This document shows, one piece after another, positions 764 through 27,340 of a stretch of DNA of 27,340 bases. The stretch is from a virus: IMG/VR virus record IMGVR_UViG_3300045988_034716, positions 1-27,340 of that record, one strand, 5' to 3'. The notes beneath the pieces were generated by a model. It saw only the letters and a program-made list of their open reading frames with translations, did no database searches and was not told the origin of the DNA. A program made the translations under genes and the position numbers. Position 1 is the first letter of the stretch. Every line of letters starts with the position of its first letter.

Positions 764-1981
764 TCATCGCCACCGGAAGCACGACAGCTCCCGCAGCCCG
801 ACCGTCTGCACGAAGTAGCGCATTGCGTCGCAGGCGTGGTCATCCTCCTTGACAACCTCCTCTTGCCTCTTCTTGTCGTTCCAGCGGTACAGCCCGAGTT
901 CCGACAGCAGGCGCTCGCACTTGTGGCTTATCAGCAGGTCTCCCCGCTCCATCGCCGTCATGACGTTGCTGATTCCCTCTATGACGGCGTTGTCCGCCCC
1001 CCTGAAGTCCCAGTCGCCGTGACGGTGCATGCACTCCATGAACGACGACGAGGACGGGTCTATTACGACAAGCTCGACGTACTTCTTCGCCATGAACCTG
1101 CGCAGCGCCTCGTAGTGCTCCTCGTCCGTCCTGCGGTACCCATCTGCCTTCGAGTCGAAGCAGTACTCGTCCACTGCGTAGGCTTTGCCCCCCTTTACGA
1201 CCCAGTCGATTGCCACGAAGGGGTTTGTGATGCCGTAGTCGATTGAGACGTAGTGCGGGGACTTGCGCAGCTCGTCATCCGGAAGCTCGGCGCACATCGT
1301 TGACTCGCGGAAGTTCTGGTAGACAAGACCCTCCGCGAGAACCCAAAGGCCACGGATGAACCGGTCGTAGAACACGCCGGAGTACATCCTCTCGTATCTA
1401 GCTATCGTGTCATCGCTTAGCGTCGGGTTGTCCCTCATCGTGAACTTGAGCACGAGTATCCGCTTCTCCTCGGCCTTGTCGATGAAATCCCTCTTCACGA
1501 AGTGCGTAGGGTACGACGGGTTGCAGTTCCACCAGAACTTCGAGCCGTCCACCGAGCATCGGGCCATCGCCTGGTCTACGAACGAGCGCGGCATCAACGC
1601 CACCTCGTCCAGCAGGCACCCGGCTGCGGTCATGCCCTGGATGACGTCCTGCGACTGCTCAGAGCTTGCACCGAACAGCCAGTACGTGTTGGTGCCGACT
1701 TTTACGTACCCGTCCCCACGGTGGTAGTCATACGCCATGCCCATGGAACGGAGGATCCCGAGCATCGGGAGGACGACGTTCCTCGTGAGCGAGCCTATCG
1801 TCCTCCCAGCCACGATGAAGCTTCGGTGGGAGAACGTCCTCTGCGACCACAGGACGAACCCGACAATCATCGAGTGCGTCTTGCCCGAGCGCACCGAACC
1901 TTGCGCAATCACGCCGTCATACGGACAAGCGCCCGACCACCACGTGGCGAGGCGCTTTTGCTTGTCGCTGAACTCTATCAT
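764..1981 (-). CDS. terL: Terminase large subunit
   Basis: A 405-aa ORF with a Walker A-like motif (GSVRSGKTH) in the N-terminal ATPase region and an acidic nuclease-type C-terminal region. It lies between a TerS-like gene and the portal. Confidence 0.9.
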   Translation of the reverse strand: MIEFSDKQKRLATWWSGACPYDGVIAQGSVRSGKTHSMIVGFVLWSQRTFSHRSFIVAGRTIGSLTRNVVLPMLGILRSMGMAYDYHRGDGYVKVGTNTYWLFGASSEQSQDVIQGMTAAGCLLDEVALMPRSFVDQAMARCSVDGSKFWWNCNPSYPTHFVKRDFIDKAEEKRILVLKFTMRDNPTLSDDTIARYERMYSGVFYDRFIRGLWVLAEGLVYQNFRESTMCAELPDDELRKSPHYVSIDYGITNPFVAIDWVVKGGKAYAVDEYCFDSKADGYRRTDEEHYEALRRFMAKKYVELVVIDPSSSSFMECMHRHGDWDFRGADNAVIEGISNVMTAMERGDLLISHKCERLLSELGLYRWNDKKRQEEVVKEDDHACDAMRYFVQTVGLRELSCFRWR

Positions 1982-2454
1982 TCCGTCTTCCCGAGTCCGA
2001 GCGCGTCAATCCACTCCTTGATGCTCGTGTCCTGCTCCTCGCTGATTGCGACGTCCTGTCTGTCTCGCCACAGCTGCGGCTGACGGTTCTTCAGCCAGAA
2101 GATGCAGGCGGTGACGTCCGGCGCAAGCTCCCTCTCGGTCTCCTCTACCCTCTTCACCTGCGGTTGGCCATCGACAATCTCGATGACCTTCTTCGTCTCC
2201 CGCGACTTGCCGCCCATCGCCCGCTGGTACAGCGTTCGCTCTACGTCCATGTCAGCTATGTCGCGGCTCTCGTTTAGGGCGTTCGAAAACGCCTCGTCCT
2301 CCTTGGCCCACTTGTACAGCGTTGACTTCGCTACCCCGAACTCCCTCGCTATCTCCTCGGCAGTTGCGCCCCTCAGCGCCAGACCCCTCGCCCACGGGAT
2401 GTGGTACTTCGGATCGTACTTAGTCGGCCTTCCCGTCTTTGCCATGCGTATCAC
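1978..2454 (-). CDS. terS: Terminase small subunit. The true start is probably the ATG at 2445 (MAKTGRPTKYD...)
   Basis: N-terminal MAKTGRPTKY followed by an HTH-like segment (ATAEEIAREFGVAKSTLYKWAKE), about 155 aa, immediately upstream of TerL with a 4-nt overlap. Confidence 0.7.
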   Translation of the reverse strand: MIRMAKTGRPTKYDPKYHIPWARGLALRGATAEEIAREFGVAKSTLYKWAKEDEAFSNALNESRDIADMDVERTLYQRAMGGKSRETKKVIEIVDGQPQVKRVEETERELAPDVTACIFWLKNRQPQLWRDRQDVAISEEQDTSIKEWIDALGLGKTE

Positions 2455-3849: not shown

Positions 3850-3895
3850 TCATTTCTCCTTCGTCCTTCCTGCCTTGGTGTTTACTGATGTGAAC

Positions 3896-3924
3896 ATCAT
3901 ATAACATCCGCTCACGTTTGTAAA
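3896..3924 (-). promoter_or_regulatory. Sigma70-like promoter TTTACA-17-TATGAT, upstream of the XRE gene
   Basis: On the minus strand: TTTACAaacgtgagcggatgttaTATGAT. It sits in a locally AT-rich 70-bp island between the DnaC-like gene and the XRE gene. It has the same -10 hexamer as P1-P3. Confidence 0.5.
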
Positions 3925-3926
3925 TA

Positions 3927-4712
3927 TCATTCCAAGCCAAGGTCCCTCCTCATCGCCTCGTACCTCTCCGCCGTCGCACGCTTCCTGCCGGTGTTGAACT
4001 CGACCGGTAGGCACACCTCTAGGATGCGGTTGTACGTCCTCCTCGCCGTTATGTCGGGCGTCTTGTACAGCTCCGTGCGCGTGAGGTTGGTGCTCACCAC
4101 CATCGGCATCCTCTGCCGGTACCTCCCGTCCACGACCGCGTAGACGAACTCCTGCGCATAGCTCGTGCTCCTCTCGGCACCGAGGTCGTCGAGTATCAGC
4201 AGGTCGCACGACAGCAGGCTCCTGAGCTGCTGCTCGTCGTCGAGGTTCCGCGCGATGATGAGCTGGGGAACCGACCTCATCACGACCCGCTTTCCGCCCT
4301 CTATGAGCCTGTTCGCAATGCAGCAGCTCGCGAAGGTCTTTCCCCCGTCCGGTTCCCCGAACATGAGCAGTCCGTAGTCTGCCCCGGCTGCGCACCTCTC
4401 GGCGTACCTGCGGCACACTTCCATCTGATCCTTCCCGTACCTGCCGTCGTCTGCCTCGAACGTGCACTCGCGCATCTCCGCCGACGAGAACGCGGTTCTT
4501 AGCAGCCTCTCGGTGCGAGCCTTGCGCTCGCGCTCCTCCGACTCCCTCTCCTCGCGCTCCCTCGCCTCCTCCTGGCACCTGCAAAGGCACGGCATGAGCT
4601 TTCCCTCTGCCATGACCGCCCTCGGGGTGTGGCAGTCTGGGCACATTGGGATGCCGTTCTCGACCGACAGCCCGTCCCACATGCGGTTCGATATGCTGAA
4701 TCCAAAGTCCAT
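3927..4712 (-). CDS. DnaC/IstB-like AAA+ helicase loader with an N-terminal Cys cluster
   Basis: Walker A GEPDGGKTFASCCIANRL. Walker B LLILDDLGAE. N-terminal CPDCH...CLCRC. RBS GGGGGAtagc precedes ATG. It lies directly downstream of the replisome organizer. Confidence 0.85.
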   Translation of the reverse strand: MDFGFSISNRMWDGLSVENGIPMCPDCHTPRAVMAEGKLMPCLCRCQEEAREREERESEERERKARTERLLRTAFSSAEMRECTFEADDGRYGKDQMEVCRRYAERCAAGADYGLLMFGEPDGGKTFASCCIANRLIEGGKRVVMRSVPQLIIARNLDDEQQLRSLLSCDLLILDDLGAERSTSYAQEFVYAVVDGRYRQRMPMVVSTNLTRTELYKTPDITARRTYNRILEVCLPVEFNTGRKRATAERYEAMRRDLGLE

Positions 4713-4722
4713 GCTATCCCCC

Positions 4723-5433
4723 CTAGAACGGGCAGTCGGCCATGTCTACGACAGGCGACTCGTTCACATACGCCTCGAACTTCGATGCTCGGAACAGCGT
4801 CTCCGGTCTTAGGTACGAACGCATCCTCGGGTCTTTCGACCACTGCGCGACCTTGCAGTCTATGACTGCGATGCAGTCGCTCACCGAGTACCCGTCCCTC
4901 AGCCTCGCCGCAATCGGCTTGCGCGTCGAGTCCTTCCTCGGGTTGAACCTCTTCCCCGTCAGCTCGTTGAGGTGCGCCGTTACCTCGTCCACGCCCTCCT
5001 GGATGCCGTCTTGGGGGGCTTTAGGGGGTTCTATATGGCTAGTCATCTGGTAGTCATCTGGTATAGGTTCGCCATGTGGGGCAATTTGATTTGCCCTCAC
5101 GGGCAAATGGATGTTCCCGTTACGGCAAATGCGCACCCCCTCGTCCGTGAGCGTGTACCACTTCGTCCTGTCGTATGCCGCGTCGTTGTACACACCGGCC
5201 TCGACGAGTCCCGAGTCCTCTAGCCTCTTGAGCGCCGAGCGTATCTGCTTCTCCGTCATGTACGGGAACTGCTCGGAGAAAGCCTTCACGCTGTTGTACG
5301 TCCAGAACCTCCCGTCGCGCTCGTTCTGGCTGTTCGTCGCGTTCTTCTCGACCCAGTACTCTATGTTCTTGAACAGCACCGCCGCGTTGACGCCCACCAG
5401 CTTCGCGACTTCCGAGTCGAATGCGTTAATCAT
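4723..5433 (-). CDS. Phage replisome organizer (DnaD-like N-terminal domain plus conserved phage C-terminal domain). The start is re-assigned to ATG 5431-5433
   Basis: N-terminal MINAFDSEVAKLVGVNAAVLFKNIEYW... C-terminal LNELTGKRFNPRKDSTRKPIAARLRDGYSVSDCIAVIDCKVAQWSKDPRMRSYLRPETLFRASKFEAYVNE, the conserved phage replication-protein C-terminus. RBS GGAGGAGAC precedes ATG. The longer track ORF start at 5526 would read through an upstream terminator hairpin. Confidence 0.85.
   Translation of the reverse strand: MINAFDSEVAKLVGVNAAVLFKNIEYWVEKNATNSQNERDGRFWTYNSVKAFSEQFPYMTEKQIRSALKRLEDSGLVEAGVYNDAAYDRTKWYTLTDEGVRICRNGNIHLPVRANQIAPHGEPIPDDYQMTSHIEPPKAPQDGIQEGVDEVTAHLNELTGKRFNPRKDSTRKPIAARLRDGYSVSDCIAVIDCKVAQWSKDPRMRSYLRPETLFRASKFEAYVNESPVVDMADCPF
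5036..5132 (+). repeat. Ori-like iteron element, copy A, inside the replisome-organizer linker
   Basis: AGTCATCTGGT AGTCATCTGGT ATAGGT...GATTTGCC...GGGCAAATG...CCCGT..GGCAAATG. About 80% identical to the element at 21128..21226. It encodes the inter-domain linker (..IPDDYQMTSHI..). Confidence 0.6.
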
Positions 5434-5543: not shown

Positions 5544-6413
5544 TCATTTTGCTCCGAAGAGTTCGCGGTAGTGTGCGCAGAACTCGCAGGCCGCGCAGTA
5601 GTCGCGGCACTTCGGGTCGTCTCCCGGTCGGTGCTCGACGTAGAACTTCTCGCCCTCGCTCTCAGCCCTCTCGTTCGCCTCCTCCTCTGAGTCGTAGAGC
5701 TTGACCGCCGACTTGCGGCCCTCCTTCATCACCGCCCACTTGTCTGCCTTGTGCCAGCGCTCCTCCTCGGAGCACATCGGCAGCTCCTCGTCTGGCATCG
5801 ACTCCGCGAGCTTTATCTCCTCGAAGCGACCGCGCAGCCACTCGCCGCACTCCGCTATCTCGCTCTCGCTGAAGTCCCATCCGATGCGGTACACGGGATG
5901 CTGCGGATACGTATGGTCCGCCTTCGCCTTCGTCTTCGAGTGGTCTTTCAGCATTGCCACGATCTCGCCGCGCTTGGCGTCGAATCCTATCTGGCGCAGC
6001 ATCCACACGTAGCATAGCGTCTGGCGCTTCCAGTCGTCGAACTCGCCGAACACGACCTTCCACGCCGTGGCTGTCTTGTAGTCGGTCACGGTGCCCGTCG
6101 AATCGTCGTACAGGTCGAATATGCCGGAAAGCTCGTACCCGTCTCCCATATCGACGCTGAACCAATTCTCCTTGAGCTGGTCTGCCGTCTCCTGCGAGTT
6201 CTCAAGTATGCTGTGGACGGCTGTCCCGAATATCGCCCATACCATGTCAGACGCGTCCTGCTCGATTTCTGAGTCGTGTCGGCGCTGAAGGATGCTCTCG
6301 CGCACCCCCTTCATCACCGCGGTCACGCTGTAGCGCTTTGACGTGTACTTATGGTCGCTCGTCGCCGCGTCTACAAAAGGCGCTGGCAGGTTCATCTCGT
6401 TCGTGATAATCAC
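5544..6413 (-). CDS. PD-(D/E)xK nuclease, Cas4/RecB-like, with a C-terminal Cys cluster. GTG start at 6411-6413
   Basis: Nuclease motifs IFDLYDD, TDYKT (the DYKT hallmark) and a Q-x3-Y motif (QTLCY). C-terminal CRDYCAACEFC. RBS GGAGG 7 nt before GTG. The GTG overlaps the RusA stop codon as GTGA. Confidence 0.7.
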   Translation of the reverse strand: MIITNEMNLPAPFVDAATSDHKYTSKRYSVTAVMKGVRESILQRRHDSEIEQDASDMVWAIFGTAVHSILENSQETADQLKENWFSVDMGDGYELSGIFDLYDDSTGTVTDYKTATAWKVVFGEFDDWKRQTLCYVWMLRQIGFDAKRGEIVAMLKDHSKTKAKADHTYPQHPVYRIGWDFSESEIAECGEWLRGRFEEIKLAESMPDEELPMCSEEERWHKADKWAVMKEGRKSAVKLYDSEEEANERAESEGEKFYVEHRPGDDPKCRDYCAACEFCAHYRELFGAK

Positions 6414-6814
6414 TCGTCTACCTCCACTATCTCGACTGTCATGTACTCCGCTGTCCTCGTCCTCGGGTTCTTTCTGACCACAAGGCAAACGACCTGCGTG
6501 TCATCGTGCCACGCGACACCGTTAAGTGCGTCGAGTACGCTCTTCGCAACGTTGTCTGCGTCCGGCTTGTGCGTGTCAGGCTCGCTCTGGACTCGCTTCG
6601 GCGTGCTCTTCGGAAGCTCTCTGTACGTCTGAACCGTAACCATGAGCGGCCCGTCGTGCGTCTCTCCGCACTGCCTTCGGTACTCGTCAGCTATCAGCCT
6701 CTCGTACCTCTTGCCCTCCGGAGGCTGGTACGCCTGGGCGTGCCCCGCCACGACTCTGAACCTCGGGCGGGGCTTGCCGTGAACCTTGCCGACGACGATC
6801 AACCTACTCCTCAT
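6410..6814 (-). CDS. rusA: RusA Holliday-junction resolvase
   Basis: A 134-aa ORF with GKPRPRF and KPDADNVAKSVLDALNGVAWHDD motifs. Confidence 0.85.
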   Translation of the reverse strand: MRSRLIVVGKVHGKPRPRFRVVAGHAQAYQPPEGKRYERLIADEYRRQCGETHDGPLMVTVQTYRELPKSTPKRVQSEPDTHKPDADNVAKSVLDALNGVAWHDDTQVVCLVVRKNPRTRTAEYMTVEIVEVDE

Positions 6815-7278: not shown

Positions 7279-7307
7279 ATCATAGCACAATCGTTCATCG
7301 TTGTGAA
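7279..7307 (-). promoter_or_regulatory. Promoter P1: TTCACA-17-TGcTATGAT (minus strand), conserved module copy 1
   Basis: On the minus strand: TTCACAacgatgaacgattgtgcTATGAT. Near-identical copies occur at 8979..9007 and 25194..25222. Confidence 0.65.
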
Positions 7308-7316
7308 TAGTAATTA

Positions 7317-7345
7317 CGAGAAAACGGCGGGCTTGCAACCCGCCT
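7317..7345 (-). terminator. Rho-independent terminator: GGCGGG ttgcaag CCCGCC then GTTTTCTCG
   Basis: A hairpin followed by a U-tract on the minus strand, directly after the stop of the 7352..7603 gene and directly before P1. Confidence 0.6.
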
Positions 7346-7351
7346 TACGCG

Positions 7352-7616: not shown

Positions 7617-8018
7617 CTAGAACGGGATGTCCTCGTCGTACATCCCTGCGTCTTCCTGCTGCCCGTCGTATGCGTTCTGCCCGCTTCTCTGGCCTGCGCC
7701 CTGGAAGTGGATGTTGTCAACGACCACTTCCACCTTGCTGCGCTTCTGTCCGTCCTTCTCCCATCGGTTCTGGTGCAAGCGCCCTGTCACTGCGACGTAC
7801 GTGCCCTTCGACAGGTAGCCGCTGACGGACTCCGCACGCTTGCCGAACAGCGTCATGTCGATGTAGTTCGGATAGTCCTCCCACTCACCGTTGCCGTCCT
7901 TCCGGCTCTCGTTGACGGCCACCGACATGCTCAGGACTGCCGTCCCGCCCTGCGTGTAGCGAAGCTCCGGGCCTCTCGTGAGGTTCCCGCCGAGCGTCAC
8001 GCTGTTCAATCCGTTCAT
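7617..8018 (-). CDS. ssb: Single-stranded DNA-binding protein
   Basis: OB-fold N-terminus (NSVTLGGNLTRGPELRYT...), a Gly/Gln-rich tail and an acidic C-terminal tip ...DEDIPF. RBS AAGGAG. Confidence 0.95.
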   Translation of the reverse strand: MNGLNSVTLGGNLTRGPELRYTQGGTAVLSMSVAVNESRKDGNGEWEDYPNYIDMTLFGKRAESVSGYLSKGTYVAVTGRLHQNRWEKDGQKRSKVEVVVDNIHFQGAGQRSGQNAYDGQQEDAGMYDEDIPF

Positions 8019-8027
8019 CTGCTCTCC

Positions 8028-8735
8028 TTAGCTCTTAGCAATCCATCCTGCCAGTATCTCCGATGCGCGTACGGTCTGCGCCTCGTTGTACTCGAGCGCA
8101 CCCTCGGTCACACCGAGCTGCTGCATTCCCTTCGTCTTGTTGAGCGCGGCAATCACCTCGTCTATCTGACGGCCCTTCATCTCTGCGAACTTCGCCAGGT
8201 TCACTAGGAAGTCGTCCCCTGATGCCTGCGTTTGCTTCTGTGGTGCCGTTTTACGGGCAGTTTGCGCCTTCTTTGGTGTAGTTGTTCCTCCTCCGCGACT
8301 CCGCGTCTTAGAATCGCTTACAGAGCCTCGGTTGTCCATGCCGTCCACCTCCTCGCCGGAGTCGATGGCGAACAGGCCGCACATCGCGTACTTTCGCGCG
8401 TACGAGCTTGCGAGACCAGAAATCTGAGCATCGTCCATGCCCTTCTTCTCGTCCTCCTCGCGTGCGTACGCGGTCGATGAGATCTCGCCATCGCACCCGT
8501 TCGCCCAGAATGTAGCGGTCGCCTTCGTGTAGAAGCGCTCCCCGATGAGCATCACCTCGTCGCTCAGGAAGTACCCGCAGTCGTACGTGTCGCACAGCGG
8601 CTTGAGCGCTGCGTTGATGCTCTCAAGGTTGCGGAACGCGTACTTGCCGAAGCTGTTGTACTGGTCTTTCGGTACGTGAAGCTCGTTCTGCACATGCGAT
8701 AGCACAGAGCGAAGCTCCCTTTCCTTCTCAGCCAT
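8028..8735 (-). CDS. erf: ERF-family single-strand annealing protein
   Basis: KYAFRNLESINAALKPL...GERFYTKATATF...AQISGLASSYARKYAMCGLFAI resembles the ERF core. It lies directly upstream of ssb. Confidence 0.7.
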   Translation of the reverse strand: MAEKERELRSVLSHVQNELHVPKDQYNSFGKYAFRNLESINAALKPLCDTYDCGYFLSDEVMLIGERFYTKATATFWANGCDGEISSTAYAREEDEKKGMDDAQISGLASSYARKYAMCGLFAIDSGEEVDGMDNRGSVSDSKTRSRGGGTTTPKKAQTARKTAPQKQTQASGDDFLVNLAKFAEMKGRQIDEVIAALNKTKGMQQLGVTEGALEYNEAQTVRASEILAGWIAKS

Positions 8736-8978: not shown

Positions 8979-9007
8979 ATCATAGCATAAGCGTTCATCT
9001 TTGTGAA
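8979..9007 (-). promoter_or_regulatory. Promoter P2: TTCACA-17-TGcTATGAT, conserved module copy 2
   Basis: On the minus strand: TTCACAaagatgaacgcttatgcTATGAT. Confidence 0.65.
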
Positions 9008-9014
9008 TAGTGTA

Positions 9015-9050
9015 CGCAAAAATATGGGGGGGCGCTTTCACACCCCCCCA
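9015..9050 (-). terminator. Rho-independent terminator: G7 / C7 stem then ATATTTTTG
   Basis: On the minus strand: gggggggtgtgaaagcgccccccc followed by atatttttgcg. It is 7 nt downstream of the endolysin stop. Confidence 0.6.
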
Positions 9051-15478: not shown

Positions 15479-16336
15479 CTAGATGTACGTGTCGCGCGAT
15501 GCGACCTCTATTGTACCTATGCCGTCCGCGCTCAGCGAAAGCGTTAGCGAGCCTCCCGCTGGCACGGTCGGGAACCCACGCTGCGTGACGCTCCTCGTCA
15601 CATCCACGCCGTTGACAGACGCCGTTCTCGACCGGCAGTCTATCTCGACCACAGACGAGCCCACTGGCTGCGAGTACACGAGCTGCTCCCCGGTCGCCTG
15701 GTTCGTGATTGCGAACCCATTTGGCATGTCACCCGACGCGTATATGGCCGGGTAAGCCTCCGACGTGCCCTCGTTTGATACAGTGCATACGCTCCTCATC
15801 GCCTCGGCCCCGTCTCCGTATTGGAGCGGGTACCTGAGCACACCCGAATCGTAGACGAGTCCGCCGAATCCCTGCGAGCTGGGGTTCATGAACCCGACCG
15901 ACACGTTGGCCGAGAGCCTCTCCGGACGAGGGCACCTGACCGTCACAGTGACGTCCTCCTCGTTCCTCGTCACCTTCCCGTCCTTTACCTCGACCGTCAC
16001 GAACCCCTCTACGCACGTGTCGGAATCCTCGTCAACGACCCTGAGACTCACGAGTCCGTGCGCCATCCACAGAAGGCTCTCGACCTGCTGCTCGACCTCC
16101 GTACGGTTCCTCCCGTGCGCTACGCACTCTATGGTCACCGTGCGCGACGCGTACAGCACCGAGCGTCCTTCAACGTCATGCGAGCCGTCGCCCGACTCCC
16201 TCGCCGTCATGCTCACCTTCGAGTCTGGCGTAGACCACCAGCCCTTTATCGTTCTCACGTCTATGCCGTTCGACCCGTCTCCGCCAAGCCGCACGGTGAC
16301 GTCTTCCTTCGTAATCTCCGCGAACCACTTCTGCAT
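15479..16336 (-). CDS. Distal tail protein (Dit, siphovirus tail component family)
   Basis: A 285-aa gene immediately after the tape measure gene, with an ATGA overlap. Confidence 0.55.
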   Translation of the reverse strand: MQKWFAEITKEDVTVRLGGDGSNGIDVRTIKGWWSTPDSKVSMTARESGDGSHDVEGRSVLYASRTVTIECVAHGRNRTEVEQQVESLLWMAHGLVSLRVVDEDSDTCVEGFVTVEVKDGKVTRNEEDVTVTVRCPRPERLSANVSVGFMNPSSQGFGGLVYDSGVLRYPLQYGDGAEAMRSVCTVSNEGTSEAYPAIYASGDMPNGFAITNQATGEQLVYSQPVGSSVVEIDCRSRTASVNGVDVTRSVTQRGFPTVPAGGSLTLSLSADGIGTIEVASRDTYI

Positions 16337-18705
16337 CAGAACGCTCCCATCGCCTCTGACAGCGCGTTCCTGTGCAGGATTGCCGCCGCGCTGTACAGGT
16401 CGTCGTCAGACCTGACCACCTTCGTCTCGAAATGCTGCTCGACCTTCGGGGGCTGCTGCCCCTTGTCGCTCACGAACCCGAACACGGCACCCTGCTGCTT
16501 GAAATCCATCTGCACTCCGTCGATTCCGAGCTTGACGTCCTTCCTGAGCGAGCCGAACGGGTCTTCCCTGTCCCATCCGAGGGATACGCCTATTGCAGCG
16601 CCACGGCCCATGTTCACGCCGATGAGGTCGCGCATGAGAGTGGACGGAGAATGGATGCCAAGAAAGTTCTTCACTGAGTCTATTGCGGAGTTCACCCCAC
16701 CCATGATCGCGTTGAGGATTTCGCCTCCGGCGTTGCGGATGCCATTCGCGATTCCCTCCACGATGTTCGAGCCTACGGATACGACCTGTCCGGGGATTGA
16801 CGCCAGGCCGCTTATGAGGTTGCTCGCGAACTCCGACGCTGCGCTGATTGCGTTTGACGCCATCTGCCCGACGAACGACGCGACGTTGCCGATTACAGAG
16901 CCTAGGAACCCTGCGATCCTTCCGGGCACAGACCCTATGAAGCTCACGATGCTGTTCAGGAACCCGGAACCCGCGGATGCGGCACCGCTCACAACGGAGC
17001 CGACGAACGACGCGACGTTCGACACGACCGAACCGAGGAACCCGGCTATGTTGCCCGGAAGCGACGCGAACCACCCAATGAGCGCCTGGATTGCCCCGGG
17101 GACGGTGACCGTGAAGAACTCGACAATCGCGCCCCATACGGCTGCTGCTGCGGACGAGATTGCGTCCCATGCCGCTGTTACGGCGTTCCTGAAGTCCTCG
17201 TTCGTCGCCCATAGGGCGACGAGAGCCGCAACGAGCGCCCCTATCGCGATTACGACAATCATCATCGGGTTCATGCTCATCACGAAGTTTAGAGCGGCCT
17301 GGGCGAGGGACATCGTCTCAGTCGCTCCCGCCGCAACCGTCTGCGCGGTCGTGAACGCCGTTATCGCTGCGCTGATGCCCTGAACCATCCCACTTATCGT
17401 CGTGTACGCCTGCCATGCGGCGAACCCACCCGCCACGGCAGCGAGAACCGGAATCAGGATGCTGCAGTTGTCGGCGCACCACCCGAGCGCGTCAGCCGCT
17501 CCCTGAATCACCGTCGAGACAATCGGCCCGACCATTGACGAAAGCGTCCCGAACGCCGACACAACGCCGCCTATAGCCCCCTGAACCTGCGATGCGTCGA
17601 TTGTCGGTATGTTGATGCCGAGCTGCGCGAACACCGCCGTAGCTGCGTTCCACGCACCTGCAAGAGCCTCGGACAGAACCGGTGCGAGCTTCTCCTGAAT
17701 ACCGGCAAGAGCACCAGGGAGCGCGTTCACGATTCCCTCGCCGATTCGCTGGACGGCGGGTGCCACGTTCGTCGCGACGTCTCCCAGAGCTGTCATGAGG
17801 TTGTCAATCAGCGCCGTCATGTCTGCGTCGGGCGATCCTATGCCTGCGGCAAGGTTCTCCCACGCGGCCTTTACCTCATTGATGGAACCCTCGATTGTCG
17901 TGGCTCCCTCTCGCGCGGTAGTACCGGCGATGCCCTGCTTCTCCTGGACAAGCTCGATTGCCGTAACGATGTCCGAGAACGAGTCGATAGACAAGTCTGC
18001 CGCCTGACCGTTCGCCGCTGCGTACGCGTTGGCGTCGTCGATGAGGCGCTGCATCTCCTCCTTGGTGCCTCCGTAGCCGAGCTTGAGATTGTCGAGCATC
18101 GTGTAGTTCTGCTTGGCGAAGCCCTGGAACGCGTTCTGCACGTCGGTCATGTTGCTTCCGAACGTGTTCACGTTGTCGGACATCGCACGCATCGCAACGT
18201 CGGTCTGCTGCGCGGCCTTGACGGTGTCACCGCCGAGCGAGTTTATGAGCGCCGCGCTGAAGCTCGTCGCCTGCTCCATGTACTGGTTCGCCGACATTCC
18301 TGCCGTCTGCCATGCCTTCGACGCGTTCTCCGACATGAGCGCAATAGCCGGGTTCAGGCTGTTGTACTCGTCCCTGACCTCCGCGACGGCCTTGCCCTGC
18401 TCCTGAGCGTATGCGACAAGCGTCTGCCCGCTGCCGTACAGCTTCGCGACGCCGCCCGACAGCTGCTCGTAGTTCGAGTAGGCGCTGAGCGCCATTCCTC
18501 CGAACGCGAGCGCGGCCGAACCTACCGCAGCGAACGCCGCGGCACCTGCCTTCGCCACGGTCGAGAACACCGACGTCCCTTTGGACTCTACCTCAGAGAA
18601 CGACGAACCGGCCTTCTCGGCTGCGTCCTTGCCCGCCGCGTCTGCCTGCGCCCCAAGCCCGGAGCCGTCAAGCTCCATGCCAATCTTGATTGTTCCGTCT
18701 GCCAT
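16336..18705 (-). CDS. Tape measure protein, about 789 aa. Start at MADGTIKIG
   Basis: Ala/Gly-rich and largely helical, with a central hydrophobic segment. It carries tandem repeats of about 50 aa (..IAGFLGSV..NVASFVG..) encoded at roughly 16770..17064. RBS GAGAGGTGG. Confidence 0.9.
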   Translation of the reverse strand: MADGTIKIGMELDGSGLGAQADAAGKDAAEKAGSSFSEVESKGTSVFSTVAKAGAAAFAAVGSAALAFGGMALSAYSNYEQLSGGVAKLYGSGQTLVAYAQEQGKAVAEVRDEYNSLNPAIALMSENASKAWQTAGMSANQYMEQATSFSAALINSLGGDTVKAAQQTDVAMRAMSDNVNTFGSNMTDVQNAFQGFAKQNYTMLDNLKLGYGGTKEEMQRLIDDANAYAAANGQAADLSIDSFSDIVTAIELVQEKQGIAGTTAREGATTIEGSINEVKAAWENLAAGIGSPDADMTALIDNLMTALGDVATNVAPAVQRIGEGIVNALPGALAGIQEKLAPVLSEALAGAWNAATAVFAQLGINIPTIDASQVQGAIGGVVSAFGTLSSMVGPIVSTVIQGAADALGWCADNCSILIPVLAAVAGGFAAWQAYTTISGMVQGISAAITAFTTAQTVAAGATETMSLAQAALNFVMSMNPMMIVVIAIGALVAALVALWATNEDFRNAVTAAWDAISSAAAAVWGAIVEFFTVTVPGAIQALIGWFASLPGNIAGFLGSVVSNVASFVGSVVSGAASAGSGFLNSIVSFIGSVPGRIAGFLGSVIGNVASFVGQMASNAISAASEFASNLISGLASIPGQVVSVGSNIVEGIANGIRNAGGEILNAIMGGVNSAIDSVKNFLGIHSPSTLMRDLIGVNMGRGAAIGVSLGWDREDPFGSLRKDVKLGIDGVQMDFKQQGAVFGFVSDKGQQPPKVEQHFETKVVRSDDDLYSAAAILHRNALSEAMGAF

Positions 18706-21098: not shown

Positions 21099-21127
21099 GT
21101 CACCACCCTTTTCCCTTTAGCTTTTCT

Positions 21128-21226
21128 ATCTGGATAGTCATCTGGTAGTCATCTGGTATAGGTCGGCCATTGTTGTCAAATCGATTTGCCATCTAGGGCA
21201 AATGAGATTTACCCGTCGGGCAATGG
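21128..21226 (+). repeat. Ori-like iteron element, copy B, intergenic
   Basis: ATCTGG at AGTCATCTGGT AGTCATCTGGT ATAGGT..GCCAT..GATTTGCCatctagGGCAAATG..CCCGTcGGGCAATGG. It is a direct-orientation copy of 5036..5132. Confidence 0.6.
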
Positions 21227-21688
21227 CTATGCGCCTTCCAGATGCAGCACGTTCGCGTACTTGAGCATCCCCGCGCCGCCTTCCACCCCGCCGTTGTTCG
21301 ACAGGTCGCGGAACGCGTGAACCTCGAACCCACGGTGCAGCGTCAGCTCTGCGAGAATCTGCCTCTTCGTAGGCTCTCCGGACAGCGCGGTCTCTCCGAG
21401 CATCACGTAGTCTCCTGTTGATGCCGTGAGCGCGTCGCTCGGCCTCGTCTTGCAGAACTCCGCGTACGGGACGTATCGCATCGTGGATGACGGAACCTGC
21501 ACGACGCAGCTCTTCGCCGTCAACGCGACCCCTTGCGCATCCGTGGTGCGCGAAACCCTCTCGCTCCACATCGCCGGTCTGAGCACGCGCACCGCGTAGA
21601 CGTCGTTGTCCAGCCCTGCGTCCTTGGCGCCGATGCGGTTGAACACGGTCACTGTCTGGTCGAGAACCTTGTCGATGTCGATGTTCAT
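21227..21688 (-). CDS. Head completion / head-closure-like protein, 153 aa
   Basis: Position downstream of the connector gene, with a 1-nt gap. Confidence 0.35.
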   Translation of the reverse strand: MNIDIDKVLDQTVTVFNRIGAKDAGLDNDVYAVRVLRPAMWSERVSRTTDAQGVALTAKSCVVQVPSSTMRYVPYAEFCKTRPSDALTASTGDYVMLGETALSGEPTKRQILAELTLHRGFEVHAFRDLSNNGGVEGGAGMLKYANVLHLEGA

Positions 21689-25193: not shown

Positions 25194-25222
25194 ATCATAG
25201 CATATGTGTTCACCTGTGTGAA
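25194..25222 (-). promoter_or_regulatory. Promoter P3: TTCACA-17-TGcTATGAT, conserved module copy 3
   Basis: On the minus strand: TTCACAcaggtgaacacatatgcTATGAT. Confidence 0.65.
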
Positions 25223-25231
25223 TGGTTTACT

Positions 25232-25262
25232 CAAGAAAAAGCGGGGATTTTTTCTCCCCGCC
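25232..25262 (-). terminator. Rho-independent terminator: GCGGGGA gaaaaaa TCCCCGC then TTTTTCTTG
   Basis: On the minus strand, downstream of the 25278..25496 gene and immediately upstream of P3. Confidence 0.65.
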
Positions 25263-26615: not shown

Positions 26616-27285
26616 TTACAGCTCCTGGAACACGGGCACGGACGGCTTCGCGGCCGCGATCTCTGCCACCCTCTGACGAGCAACCTCCGGACTCTCGCCC
26701 ATCACCATCATCCGGTAGTCCACGGCGTCTGTGGCACCGATGGCGTTTCCTGCGAGTATCGCGCTCTGCTGGTCTGCGAACGTGTTGATGTACTCGTCGC
26801 TCCACTTGTACTCGACGTCGTACGGGCCGACCGGGACGATTCCGTAATAGCTCGCCAGAACGTCCCACGCGTACACCATGTCGTCTAGGTAGCTCTCGGC
26901 CACGCCTCGCGCCGTCTCGATGAAGCTCTGCGTCTTCACTGTGGCCTTGCGCACGTTGTCCACGTTCTGGTAGCTCGCCTCGTTCAGGTTGCTCAGGATG
27001 CCGGAGCTTACGCCGACCGCCTTCTCGACCTCCTGATACTGCTTCTCCAACGCGTCCACGTACGGCTGCAATTGGATTGTCGGTGCCCATTCCGATATGA
27101 GATTGCCGTTTCCGCGCAAGTCCCCCCGTACGTCCATGAAGAGCCGTTCACGTCCCTTCGGCATCGTGAGCTTGGATGCCACGATGTCCCCGTTCTGGTC
27201 GCGCCTGAACTCCTTCGAGAACATCGACTTGTCGGCAATGATCGCCTTCTCGCTCAGCCCGAACTCGTTGTGCATCTGGTTCGTA
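26616..27285 (-). CDS. Portal protein, C-terminal part. Continuation of 1..728 across the circular junction
   Basis: The frame is continuous with the N-terminal part. The C-terminal region ...ILAGNAIGATDAVDYRMMVMGESPEVARQRVAEIAAAKPSVP is typical of SPP1-type portals. Confidence 0.75.
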
Positions 27286-27340
27286 AGATAGTGAATCTCC
27301 CTGATTGGCGCTGACGCACCGAAGCAGATTGGTGTTCCCT
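27286..27340. repeat. Terminal direct repeat; exact copy of 1..55
   Basis: 55/55 identity with the window start. Confidence 0.9.

Follow-up and report, generated by a model that had tools for sequence, protein, structure and literature searches.

In bacteriophage lambda, palindromic initiator-binding repeats and a less stable stretch of DNA lie within the O gene, between the parts that encode the DNA-binding and the loader-binding domains, and in RepA_N plasmids the iterons are found in the middle of repA. Initiators of the RepA_N type, which are winged-helix proteins, pair iteron DNAs, and we know of no second, distal origin copy in these plasmids. Here we describe a duplicated origin-like element in a viral sequence of 27,340 nt (IMG/VR record IMGVR_UViG_3300045988_034716, positions 1 to 27,340; "the window" denotes this whole stretch), one copy of which lies inside the gene for the replisome organizer (copy A, 5029..5131, minus strand) and the other, a non-coding duplicate, in a gap between head genes (copy B, 21124..21226, minus strand).

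The closest described arrangement is that of phage SPP1, whose organizer G38P binds both origins, oriL as well as oriR, about equally tightly. oriL alone is sufficient for reconstituted theta replication, and for oriR it has been proposed, but not shown, that the stalling of forks leads to a switch to concatemeric replication by way of an exonuclease, an annealing protein, a single-strand DNA-binding protein (SSB) and a resolvase (PMC5737612, PMC6316719, PMC3485210). No other phage described with a dual-origin layout was found in a full-text literature search. We consider it probable, at about 0.65, that copy B serves the phage's organizer as a second cis-acting binding array, that is, a full duplicate of the origin and the counterpart of SPP1 oriR. 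A preliminary description of this DNA had likened the pair to oriL and oriR as a second, distant initiator-binding origin, and this comparison gains support from the position of copy A in the organizer's linker, a control on SPP1, homology in the C-terminal domain Phg_2220_C, the co-variation of the two copies and the reuse of the head-gene position by another origin type, all of it sequence evidence.

Two copies of one element

A repeat search of the window aligned 5029-5128 with 21124-21223 on the same strand, without gaps and at 77% identity over 100 nt, which bears out the earlier report of a same-orientation repeat of 5036..5132 at 21128..21226; the full copies (5029-5131 and 21124-21226) are offset by 16,095 nt throughout. 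The exact core, previously given as 28 bp, measures 29 nt (5040-5068 = 21135-21163), against a longest exact repeat of 14.9 nt on average and 19 nt at most in 100 dinucleotide-preserving shuffles. The landmarks named before, namely the core AGTCATCTGGTAGTCATCTGGTATAGGT, GCCAT, GATTTGCC, GGGCAAATG, CCCGT and GGCAA, each recur at that same offset and so keep their spacing, while the "extra upstream ATCTGG unit" is present in copy B but is really the partial third 11-mer of a tandem array, at which copy A has ATATGG. All four exact occurrences of TAGTCATCTGG and all five of GGCAAAT in the window fall within the two copies, as do all three occurrences of the palindrome ATTTGCCC-N4-GGGCAAAT (up to three mismatches), for which 0.02 would be expected. 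The pair is not an assembly duplication, a possibility raised at the outset, since each copy has flanks of its own, the two have diverged by 23% and independent assemblies again contain both sites. The window itself has identical 55-nt termini (1-55 = 27286-27340) and is thus a complete, circularly assembled genome of 27,285 bp, which the two copies cut into arcs of 11,190 and 16,095 nt (41:59).

Read on the minus strand, each copy has the same order of modules, namely three 22-bp palindromic boxes of the form CATTTGCCC-N4-GGGCAAATC, then CGAACCTATACC, then 11-bp tandem repeats CCAGATGACTA, two of them exact and followed by a partial third, and an 11-bp phasing runs through the whole element. 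Copy A covers linker residues ~102-135 of the organizer. Its P0 box (5110..5131, CATTTGCCG-taa-CGGGAACATC) is an imperfect palindrome, P1 (5088..5109, CATTTGCCC-gtga-GGGCAAATC) has perfect 8-bp arms and P2 (5066..5087, AAATTGCCC-cacat-GGCGAACC) is again imperfect; the CGAACCTATACC junction (5060..5071), which codes EPIP, leads into the repeats at 5051-5061 and 5040-5050 and the partial third at 5029-5039, together the candidate unwinding/loading region (5029..5061). In copy B, P0 (21205..21226, CCATTGCCCG-a-CGGGTAAATCT) is likewise imperfect and abuts the stop codon of the upstream gene, P1 (21183..21204, CATTTGCCC-taga-TGGCAAATC) has one mismatch, P2 (21161..21182, GATTTGACA-acaa-TGGCCGACC) is degenerate, and the repeats (21124..21156) stand at 21146-21156 and 21135-21145 with the partial third at 21124-21134, all of these features being on the minus strand. 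Over the 11-mer region, 40-nt windows have 37.5-40% GC compared with 60% for the genome, and both copies are among the genome's lowest-GC 40-mers, lower values being reached only at four promoter regions.

Copy B fills most of a 128-bp gap (21099-21226) that lies, as first described, between the stop of a 153-aa gene of the head/neck region (21688..21227, minus strand; phrog_3366) and the ATG of the Minor_capsid_2 gene (PF11114; 21098..20769, minus strand), the remainder being the leader of the latter with its ribosome-binding site, AAGCTAAAGGGAAAAGGGTGGTGAC and then ATG (21099..21123, minus strand). The statement that the late operon has no other sizeable gap holds approximately, with the correction that further gaps of 87, 56 and 329 nt separate minus-strand open reading frames (ORFs).

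As a control, SPP1 was run through the same script as the window. Nucleotides 395-441 of its gene 38, which encode the linker, match 4901-4948 in the gap after gene 7 at 87.5% over 48 nt, and oriL and oriR are 78% identical over ~100 nt.

The organizer of the window (4723..5433, minus strand; 236 aa, with its true start MINAFD at 5433) consists of an N-terminal winged helix, a disordered linker and a C-terminal Phg_2220_C domain. An AlphaFold2 (AF2) model is confident for the winged helix (residues 1-105) and for the helical Phg_2220_C part, and has a predicted local distance difference test score (pLDDT) below 50 for residues 107-140, approximately the element-encoded residues; the best Foldseek matches of the N-domain model are PadR-operator complexes and N-domain/iteron complexes of staphylococcal plasmid RepA. 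Among six organizer genes, the fraction of invariant columns at codon positions 1/2/3 is 0.61/0.64/0.67 within the element, compared with 0.74/0.82/0.33 in the N-domain and 0.72/0.75/0.37 in the C-terminal part, and amino-acid conservation within the organizer is minimal across the element. Because codon periodicity is absent and amino-acid conservation lowest here, the constraint on copy A acts on the DNA and not on the codons. For EPIP the codons are GAA-CCT-ATA-CCA, all four of them minor ones, with a joint p of ~4e-4 under genome codon usage.

The CGAACCTATACC string is found at the same place of the linker in ~40 diverse organizer homologues (33-55% identity), low-GC phages included, and these share a linker plan of 22-bp-phased CAAAT/ATTTG boxes, then CGAACCTATACCA, then 11-12-bp tandem repeats; the organizer of Bacillus phage HD29phi follows the same plan with different words. 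Across the family the boxes are the most variable part, as would be expected of specificity determinants, and the tandem-repeat part is more conserved. The 15-mer GNCGAACCTATACCA, which codes EPIP, marks ~40 organizer linkers from many environments and GC contents (loci L069-L185), and the linkers that carry it appear to form a broad, readily recognised origin-in-gene family. No second copy was seen in ~40 other organizer-bearing loci, which is weak evidence given that they span just 4.5-15 kb each (21 kb for L042), and the complete genomes of HD29phi and Eggerthella phage PMBT5 each contain just one internal origin-like array. In PMBT5, gp39 (L187, 28192-28950, annotated as hypothetical) has an HTH_36 N-terminus and stands upstream of a DnaC-like loader, and its gene contains an internal 24-nt inverted repeat and AGAAGACAAGAATAGA direct repeats; it is likely to be an unannotated organizer with an internal origin.

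Conservation, co-variation and reuse of the head-gene slot

Relatives of the window are human-gut metagenome contigs, and both copies are found at fixed orthologous positions in every relative for which the region is available. Among five group-1 genomes (the window and four relatives), invariant columns make up 58% of the gap, as opposed to 30-36% of the third codon positions in the two genes beside it; GAAAAGCTAAAGGGAAAAG in the Minor_capsid_2 leader is invariant in all five, and one of them has lost an 11-mer by slippage. Copy B retains the complete set of modules in the order and orientation of copy A, and its best-conserved portion is the 11-mer/CCTATACC part, with 79-100% identity to the other copies. 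A miniature mobile element, derived from a miniature inverted-repeat transposable element or an insertion sequence, was considered and rejected, as insertion sites do not vary among close relatives and copy A is in frame within a conserved gene design.

The group-1 genomes fall into two sets that differ in their boxes. Group 1a, to which the window and the contigs of samples 3300014203 and 3300049641 belong, has GCCC/GGGC arms and CCAGATGACTA 11-mers in both copies, and group 1b, comprising contigs 019816 and 018503 (each with both copies on one contig) as well as 017155 and 008522_110, has GACT/AGTC arms and CCAWATGACTA 11-mers in both copies, its organizer being 62-65% identical to that of the window. 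Hence the two copies not only co-occur in relatives, a comparison suggested in the preliminary description, but change box type together. Within the P1 palindrome, one pair has changed from C-G to A-T (5 versus 6 of 11 sequences) with no broken pair, and the pairing is specific in register, with 87% of cells paired as opposed to 18-43% when the partner is slid. Within one genome, identity between A and B over the boxes is only 64-70%, and every spacer differs, as do the loops, so that the arm type they share does not stem from recent gene conversion; to judge from these comparisons, the duplication is older than the split between 1a and 1b.

The junction between the 153-aa gene and the minor capsid gene (the slot), which orthologues of the 153-aa gene also border in relatives, is used by a second type of origin-like cassette. 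In group-2 relatives (62-67% identity in the minor capsid protein), GCAAACTGCNN units phased on 11 bp and then TAGTTTA-type heptads (type 2) occupy this junction, and the counterpart of this cassette sits inside a different organizer gene (phrog_8489/5708, DnaD-like). The type-2 organizer shows no BLASTP similarity to that of the window or to SPP1 G38P, and a DnaC-like loader is found downstream of it as well. Organizer array and slot are 81% identical over 101 nt in contig 046997 (pairwise E 1e-24) and 72% over 92 nt in contig 014963_62 (E 2e-10), and the heptad arrays are expanded in type-2 slot copies. The group-2 slot cassette had at first been taken for an unrelated single-copy element, a view overturned by the counterpart in the different organizer gene, the first-examined genomes being mismatched recombinants. 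A variant of the type-2 cassette also occupies the slot in the more distant P0141 lineage. Contigs of two other lineages end 50-62 nt upstream of the minor capsid gene and L201 starts within a heptad array, breaks that are consistent with failure of the assembler at a repeat.

Further features were noted in these genomes. The type-2 slot is longer (~250-290 nt), has an additional upstream cluster of TGCAAGC/GCTTGCA palindromes (L013-L019, ~150-290 nt upstream of the minor capsid gene) and possibly a hydrophobic mini-ORF of 36 aa (VRSASGLQAFADVLLAICMLAYFGFRIWRKARRN in contig 047184). In L041, an initiator of a third type (HTH_36, 288 aa) has within its own gene three palindromic repeats of 22-23 bp (15622-15711; ACTGGTGATAAAACATCACCAGT), to all appearance a further origin-in-gene design in the same phage group. 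In L042 (contig 3300045988_094940), terS-terL stand after the lysis genes and ahead of the early/replication module, apart from portal and capsid and unlike the window, and an ORF resembling a Holliday junction resolvase, by eye, lies directly upstream of the organizer. The group-2 terL (L040-L044, L059-L061, L067) is interrupted, the codons for residues 382-404 lying ~0.4-1 kb downstream from the main part, an arrangement suggestive of an intron, an intein or an inserted nuclease gene. An unrelated prophage (L030, 11230-11330) has intergenic GCAAACTGCAAGC and AGTATAAGAACA tandem repeats beside integrase and repressor genes; their likeness to the type-2 boxes is probably due to chance, and as a comparison they were uninformative.

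Possible roles of the second copy

The evidence supports a role of the element in replication through organizer binding. PadR and RepA N-domains are dimeric winged helices that read inverted repeats and the three palindromes lie two helical turns apart, for which reason we propose that organizer dimers would bind the three 22-bp-phased boxes through their N-terminal winged helix, on one face of the DNA and at both sites. By analogy with SPP1, lambda and RepA_N, Phg_2220_C and the adjacent DnaC-like loader might then bring the host helicase to the lower-GC CGAACCTATACC and 11-bp repeats, and loading at copy A would start theta replication. Copy B may itself initiate, at a distance from copy A of ~11 kb one way round the 27.3-kb circle and ~16 kb the other, or its organizer complex could stall forks from copy A and thereby cause a concatemeric switch through exonuclease, Erf and SSB, as in the SPP1 proposal. 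We lean towards copy B as a complete, initiation-competent origin, because its non-box part is kept better than the boxes and type-2 slots even expand the heptads, although a role as fork trap would be equally compatible with the sequence.

The organizer might instead bind copy B outside replication, as a roadblock or timer of late-operon transcription or as an initiator sink or handcuffing locus like P1 incA, which we regard as unlikely. Copy B does lie ~4 kb past the only strong late promoter, in an operon of ~16 kb and at the boundary between head/neck and tail genes, its complete set of boxes is conserved, and the nearest folds of the organizer N-domain belong to RepA_N-type initiators, for which iteron pairing is known (the fold match being the part computed here). 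A roadblock or sink would need the boxes only, yet it is the 11-mer/CCTATACC part and not the variable specificity part that is best conserved, and its retention sets copy B apart from a locus of the incA type, which is an array without an unwinding/loading part. A brake on copy number is also hard to justify here, as neither an integrase nor a partition gene was seen among the ORFs scanned.

It is improbable to a higher degree that copy B is a non-functional relic, that is, a scar of duplication or recombination in a tolerant junction which occasional Erf-mediated gene conversion has kept similar to copy A. The genomes in which a cassette is uncoupled from the organizer yet present, the empty slots of more distant relatives and the 11-mer lost by slippage in one genome would all fit such a history. 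Against it stand the excess of invariant gap columns over synonymous sites (58% versus 30-36%) and the apparent age of the duplication, which precedes the 1a/1b split while specificity positions have since changed in both copies and spacers have diverged. Moreover, a lineage with an unrelated organizer has a different origin type in this slot, and direct repeats in a circular genome come at a cost in deletions, which makes neutral persistence unlikely.

There is very little to recommend a transcription signal (a terminator and promoter cassette) or a hairpin-rich structured regulatory RNA. The boxes are inverted repeats able to form hairpins, with single-strand folding z-scores of -2.1 and -2.6, the arms of P1 show compensatory changes and B-P0 was flagged as weakly terminator-like. 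However, neither copy contains a sigma-70-type promoter, of which four clear ones (10/12 matches) exist elsewhere, terminator-like matches are not above those in shuffles, the predicted single-strand folds of A and B differ, and copy A is translated as a protein linker. The three boxes also have an arm sequence in common and change together, something that recognition by a protein demands and RNA hairpins do not; a search of the whole window against Rfam at gathering thresholds gave zero matches.

A packaging (pac/cos) or partition (centromere-like) site, which had been suggested as an alternative, is just as improbable and finds no support, for although repeat arrays are typical of terminase small-subunit and ParB/ParR sites and the type-2 cassette has heptad arrays, the element duplicates a sequence that is built into the organizer genes of a wide protein family, the distance of terS/terL (2454..764) is ~2.6 kb to copy A and ~8 kb to copy B, two pac sites per genome would be counter-productive, and the ORFs scanned in the window showed neither a partition ATPase nor an adaptor.

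Several observations weigh against copy B as a second origin and must be taken into account. At 37-40% GC, the 11-mer region holds no true AT-rich tract. GC skew is negative throughout the window and the cumulative skew is monotonic because every recognisable gene lies on the minus strand, so that it carries no information on origins. HD29phi, with a related organizer, has one copy only, and in PMBT5 and the P0142 lineage, which are more distant, the genes abut without a gap at the slot. Contig 094940 combines a window-type organizer (GGCAAAT boxes in the linker) with a type-2 slot cassette, and contig 047184 combines a third initiator type (22-bp palindromic repeats in the gene) with a type-2 cassette; a second copy of the own origin was not found in 094940 (86% of the contig) or 047184 (97%). 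Since such mismatched cassettes occur, the second copy is dispensable, at least in the short term. Absence of the element from one of its sites in closely related genomes without replication defects, which the preliminary description had named as evidence against an origin, is thus found in part, in the form of slot cassettes that do not match the organizer. The slot cassettes of both contigs are 87-95% identical to those of matched genomes and their structural regions are close, so that to judge by sequence the two look like recent replication-module swaps. In addition, few independent lineages underlie the co-variation, with occasional gene conversion between A and B as a possible contribution.

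A tentative extension of the second-array reading, which we hold to be possible but rather doubtful, is that the head-gene slot is a selected "origin echo", in which a copy of whichever origin is resident is acquired or kept at the neck-gene junction. If this were true, SPP1 oriR would be one instance of a recurrent device instead of an oddity, occupancy by the initiator would be coupled to a late event (a second firing site, a fork trap for the transition from theta to concatemer, or a gate for tail-gene transcription), and the mismatched genomes would be fresh recombinants before re-matching.

The role of the second origin in SPP1 has so far been a proposal, fork arrest leading to concatemer synthesis, that derives from one phage. 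The window would add a predicted SPP1-type dual-origin arrangement in an unrelated lineage of uncultured human-gut phages, and the comparative evidence, that is, co-variation, reuse of the slot by an unrelated origin and orphan cassettes, appears to be new. Two unrelated organizer/origin types in one slot, the coordinated change of both copies and the mismatch recombinants amount to evolutionary evidence of selection on the second copy, and GCCC versus GACT boxes as well as matched versus orphan cassettes offer natural variants for specificity swaps. For annotation, the rule would be that the origin of a phage with an organizer of this family can be read from the linker codons and that a second copy is worth seeking elsewhere in the genome.

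Genome setting and relation to known systems

The genome has 60% GC, and in the direction of transcription its order begins with portal (across the window ends), minor head protein and a strong promoter (25222-25194), continues with scaffold, major capsid protein, head-tail adaptor, the 153-aa gene, the 128-bp gap and Minor_capsid_2, then with tail genes, endolysin, Erf, SSB, a PD-(D/E)XK exonuclease, the replisome organizer and the DnaC-like loader, and ends with small regulators, an HNH nuclease, terS and terL. As the portal gene spans the window ends, 27275..26616 represents its C-terminal part only. The recombination toolkit comprises the Erf single-strand annealing protein (8735..8028) and SSB (8018..7617), which together cover 7617..8735, and the exonuclease (5544..6488), all on the minus strand. 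The DnaC-like helicase loader (3927..4712, minus strand, 261 aa) matches phrog_50 with an E value of 2.6e-40; an overlapping ORF of 276 aa (3850-4680, minus) had been a candidate for this gene and was rejected as a wrong frame without a family match. Long wrong-frame ORFs are frequent in this 60% GC genome, the 276-aa ORF being the longest at the loader locus. The 794-aa tape-measure-like gene has an internal 66-nt direct repeat (16868-16933 and 17000-17065; 73% identity, 132-nt spacing).

Four near-identical strong promoters on the minus strand (9007-8979, 7307-7279, 3924-3896 and 25222-25194) split the genome into a few operons and have the pattern TTCACA/TTTACA-N17-TATGAT, with an upstream TG in three of the four. 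A 69-nt repeat family covers three of them (7279-7347, 8979-9047 and 25194-25262); terminator hairpins detected in a scan precede those at 7307 and 25222, and a GC-rich inverted repeat, seen by eye only, precedes that at 9007. The promoter at 25194..25222 (minus strand) is the only strong one of sigma-70 type 5' of the late genes, with copy B ~4 kb downstream in the same operon.

By TerL, the closest cultured phage is PMBT5 (46%), and the late region had no megablast match among cultured phages. A scan of genome contigs by TerL alignment found one distant contig of a metagenome-assembled genome (Ruminococcus sp., 48% identity), the additions from a metagenome scan were mostly duplicates of viral contigs, and a distant blastn search with the element returned just two weak chance matches, to Vibrio phages.

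Set against the known systems, the element would resemble Tus-Ter and RTP-Ter if copy B acted according to the SPP1 model, as a tightly bound array far from the origin that arrests forks; in contrast to these systems, the initiator itself would then serve as barrier protein, on a site that is a full copy of the origin. With the RepA_N initiators of pSK41 and pTZ2162, the organizer shares the fold of its N-domain (iteron-bound 5kbj, 4pql and 4pt7; Foldseek probability 1.0, E ~2e-3 to 5e-3), although this structural match has a weak score and no counterpart at the level of sequence, and those are plasmid copy-control systems. As in lambda, the element lies in the interdomain linker of the initiator gene, with repeats followed by a lower-GC stretch, and the organizer has a weak PHROG match to "replication initiation O-like" (E 2e-7). 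Lambda, however, has a single origin with four 19-bp repeats, no relationship in sequence was seen between the sites and the link between the proteins is weak.

Several features differ from SPP1. The N-terminal DNA-binding domains of the two organizers are not alignable, SPP1 has direct AB boxes and a truly AT-rich tract where the window has 22-bp palindromic boxes and 11-bp repeats of 37-40% GC, and the loader of the window is a DnaC/IstB-type ATPase, with no phage helicase found among the window ORFs scanned, whereas SPP1 encodes G39P and the DnaB-type G40P. The late copy follows gene 7 in SPP1 and lies between neck genes in the window, and host and lineage are unrelated, the window being a human-gut phage of 60% GC. 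What the two phages have in common is the layout: an origin in the linker codons of the organizer gene, a second copy of ~100 nt (~78% identical in SPP1, 77% in the window) in the same orientation in a non-coding gap of the late head genes, a common C-terminal Phg_2220_C in the window organizer and G38P (41% identity, E 6e-14, both matching phrog_428), an exonuclease, a single-strand annealing protein and SSB, and genes that all lie on one strand.

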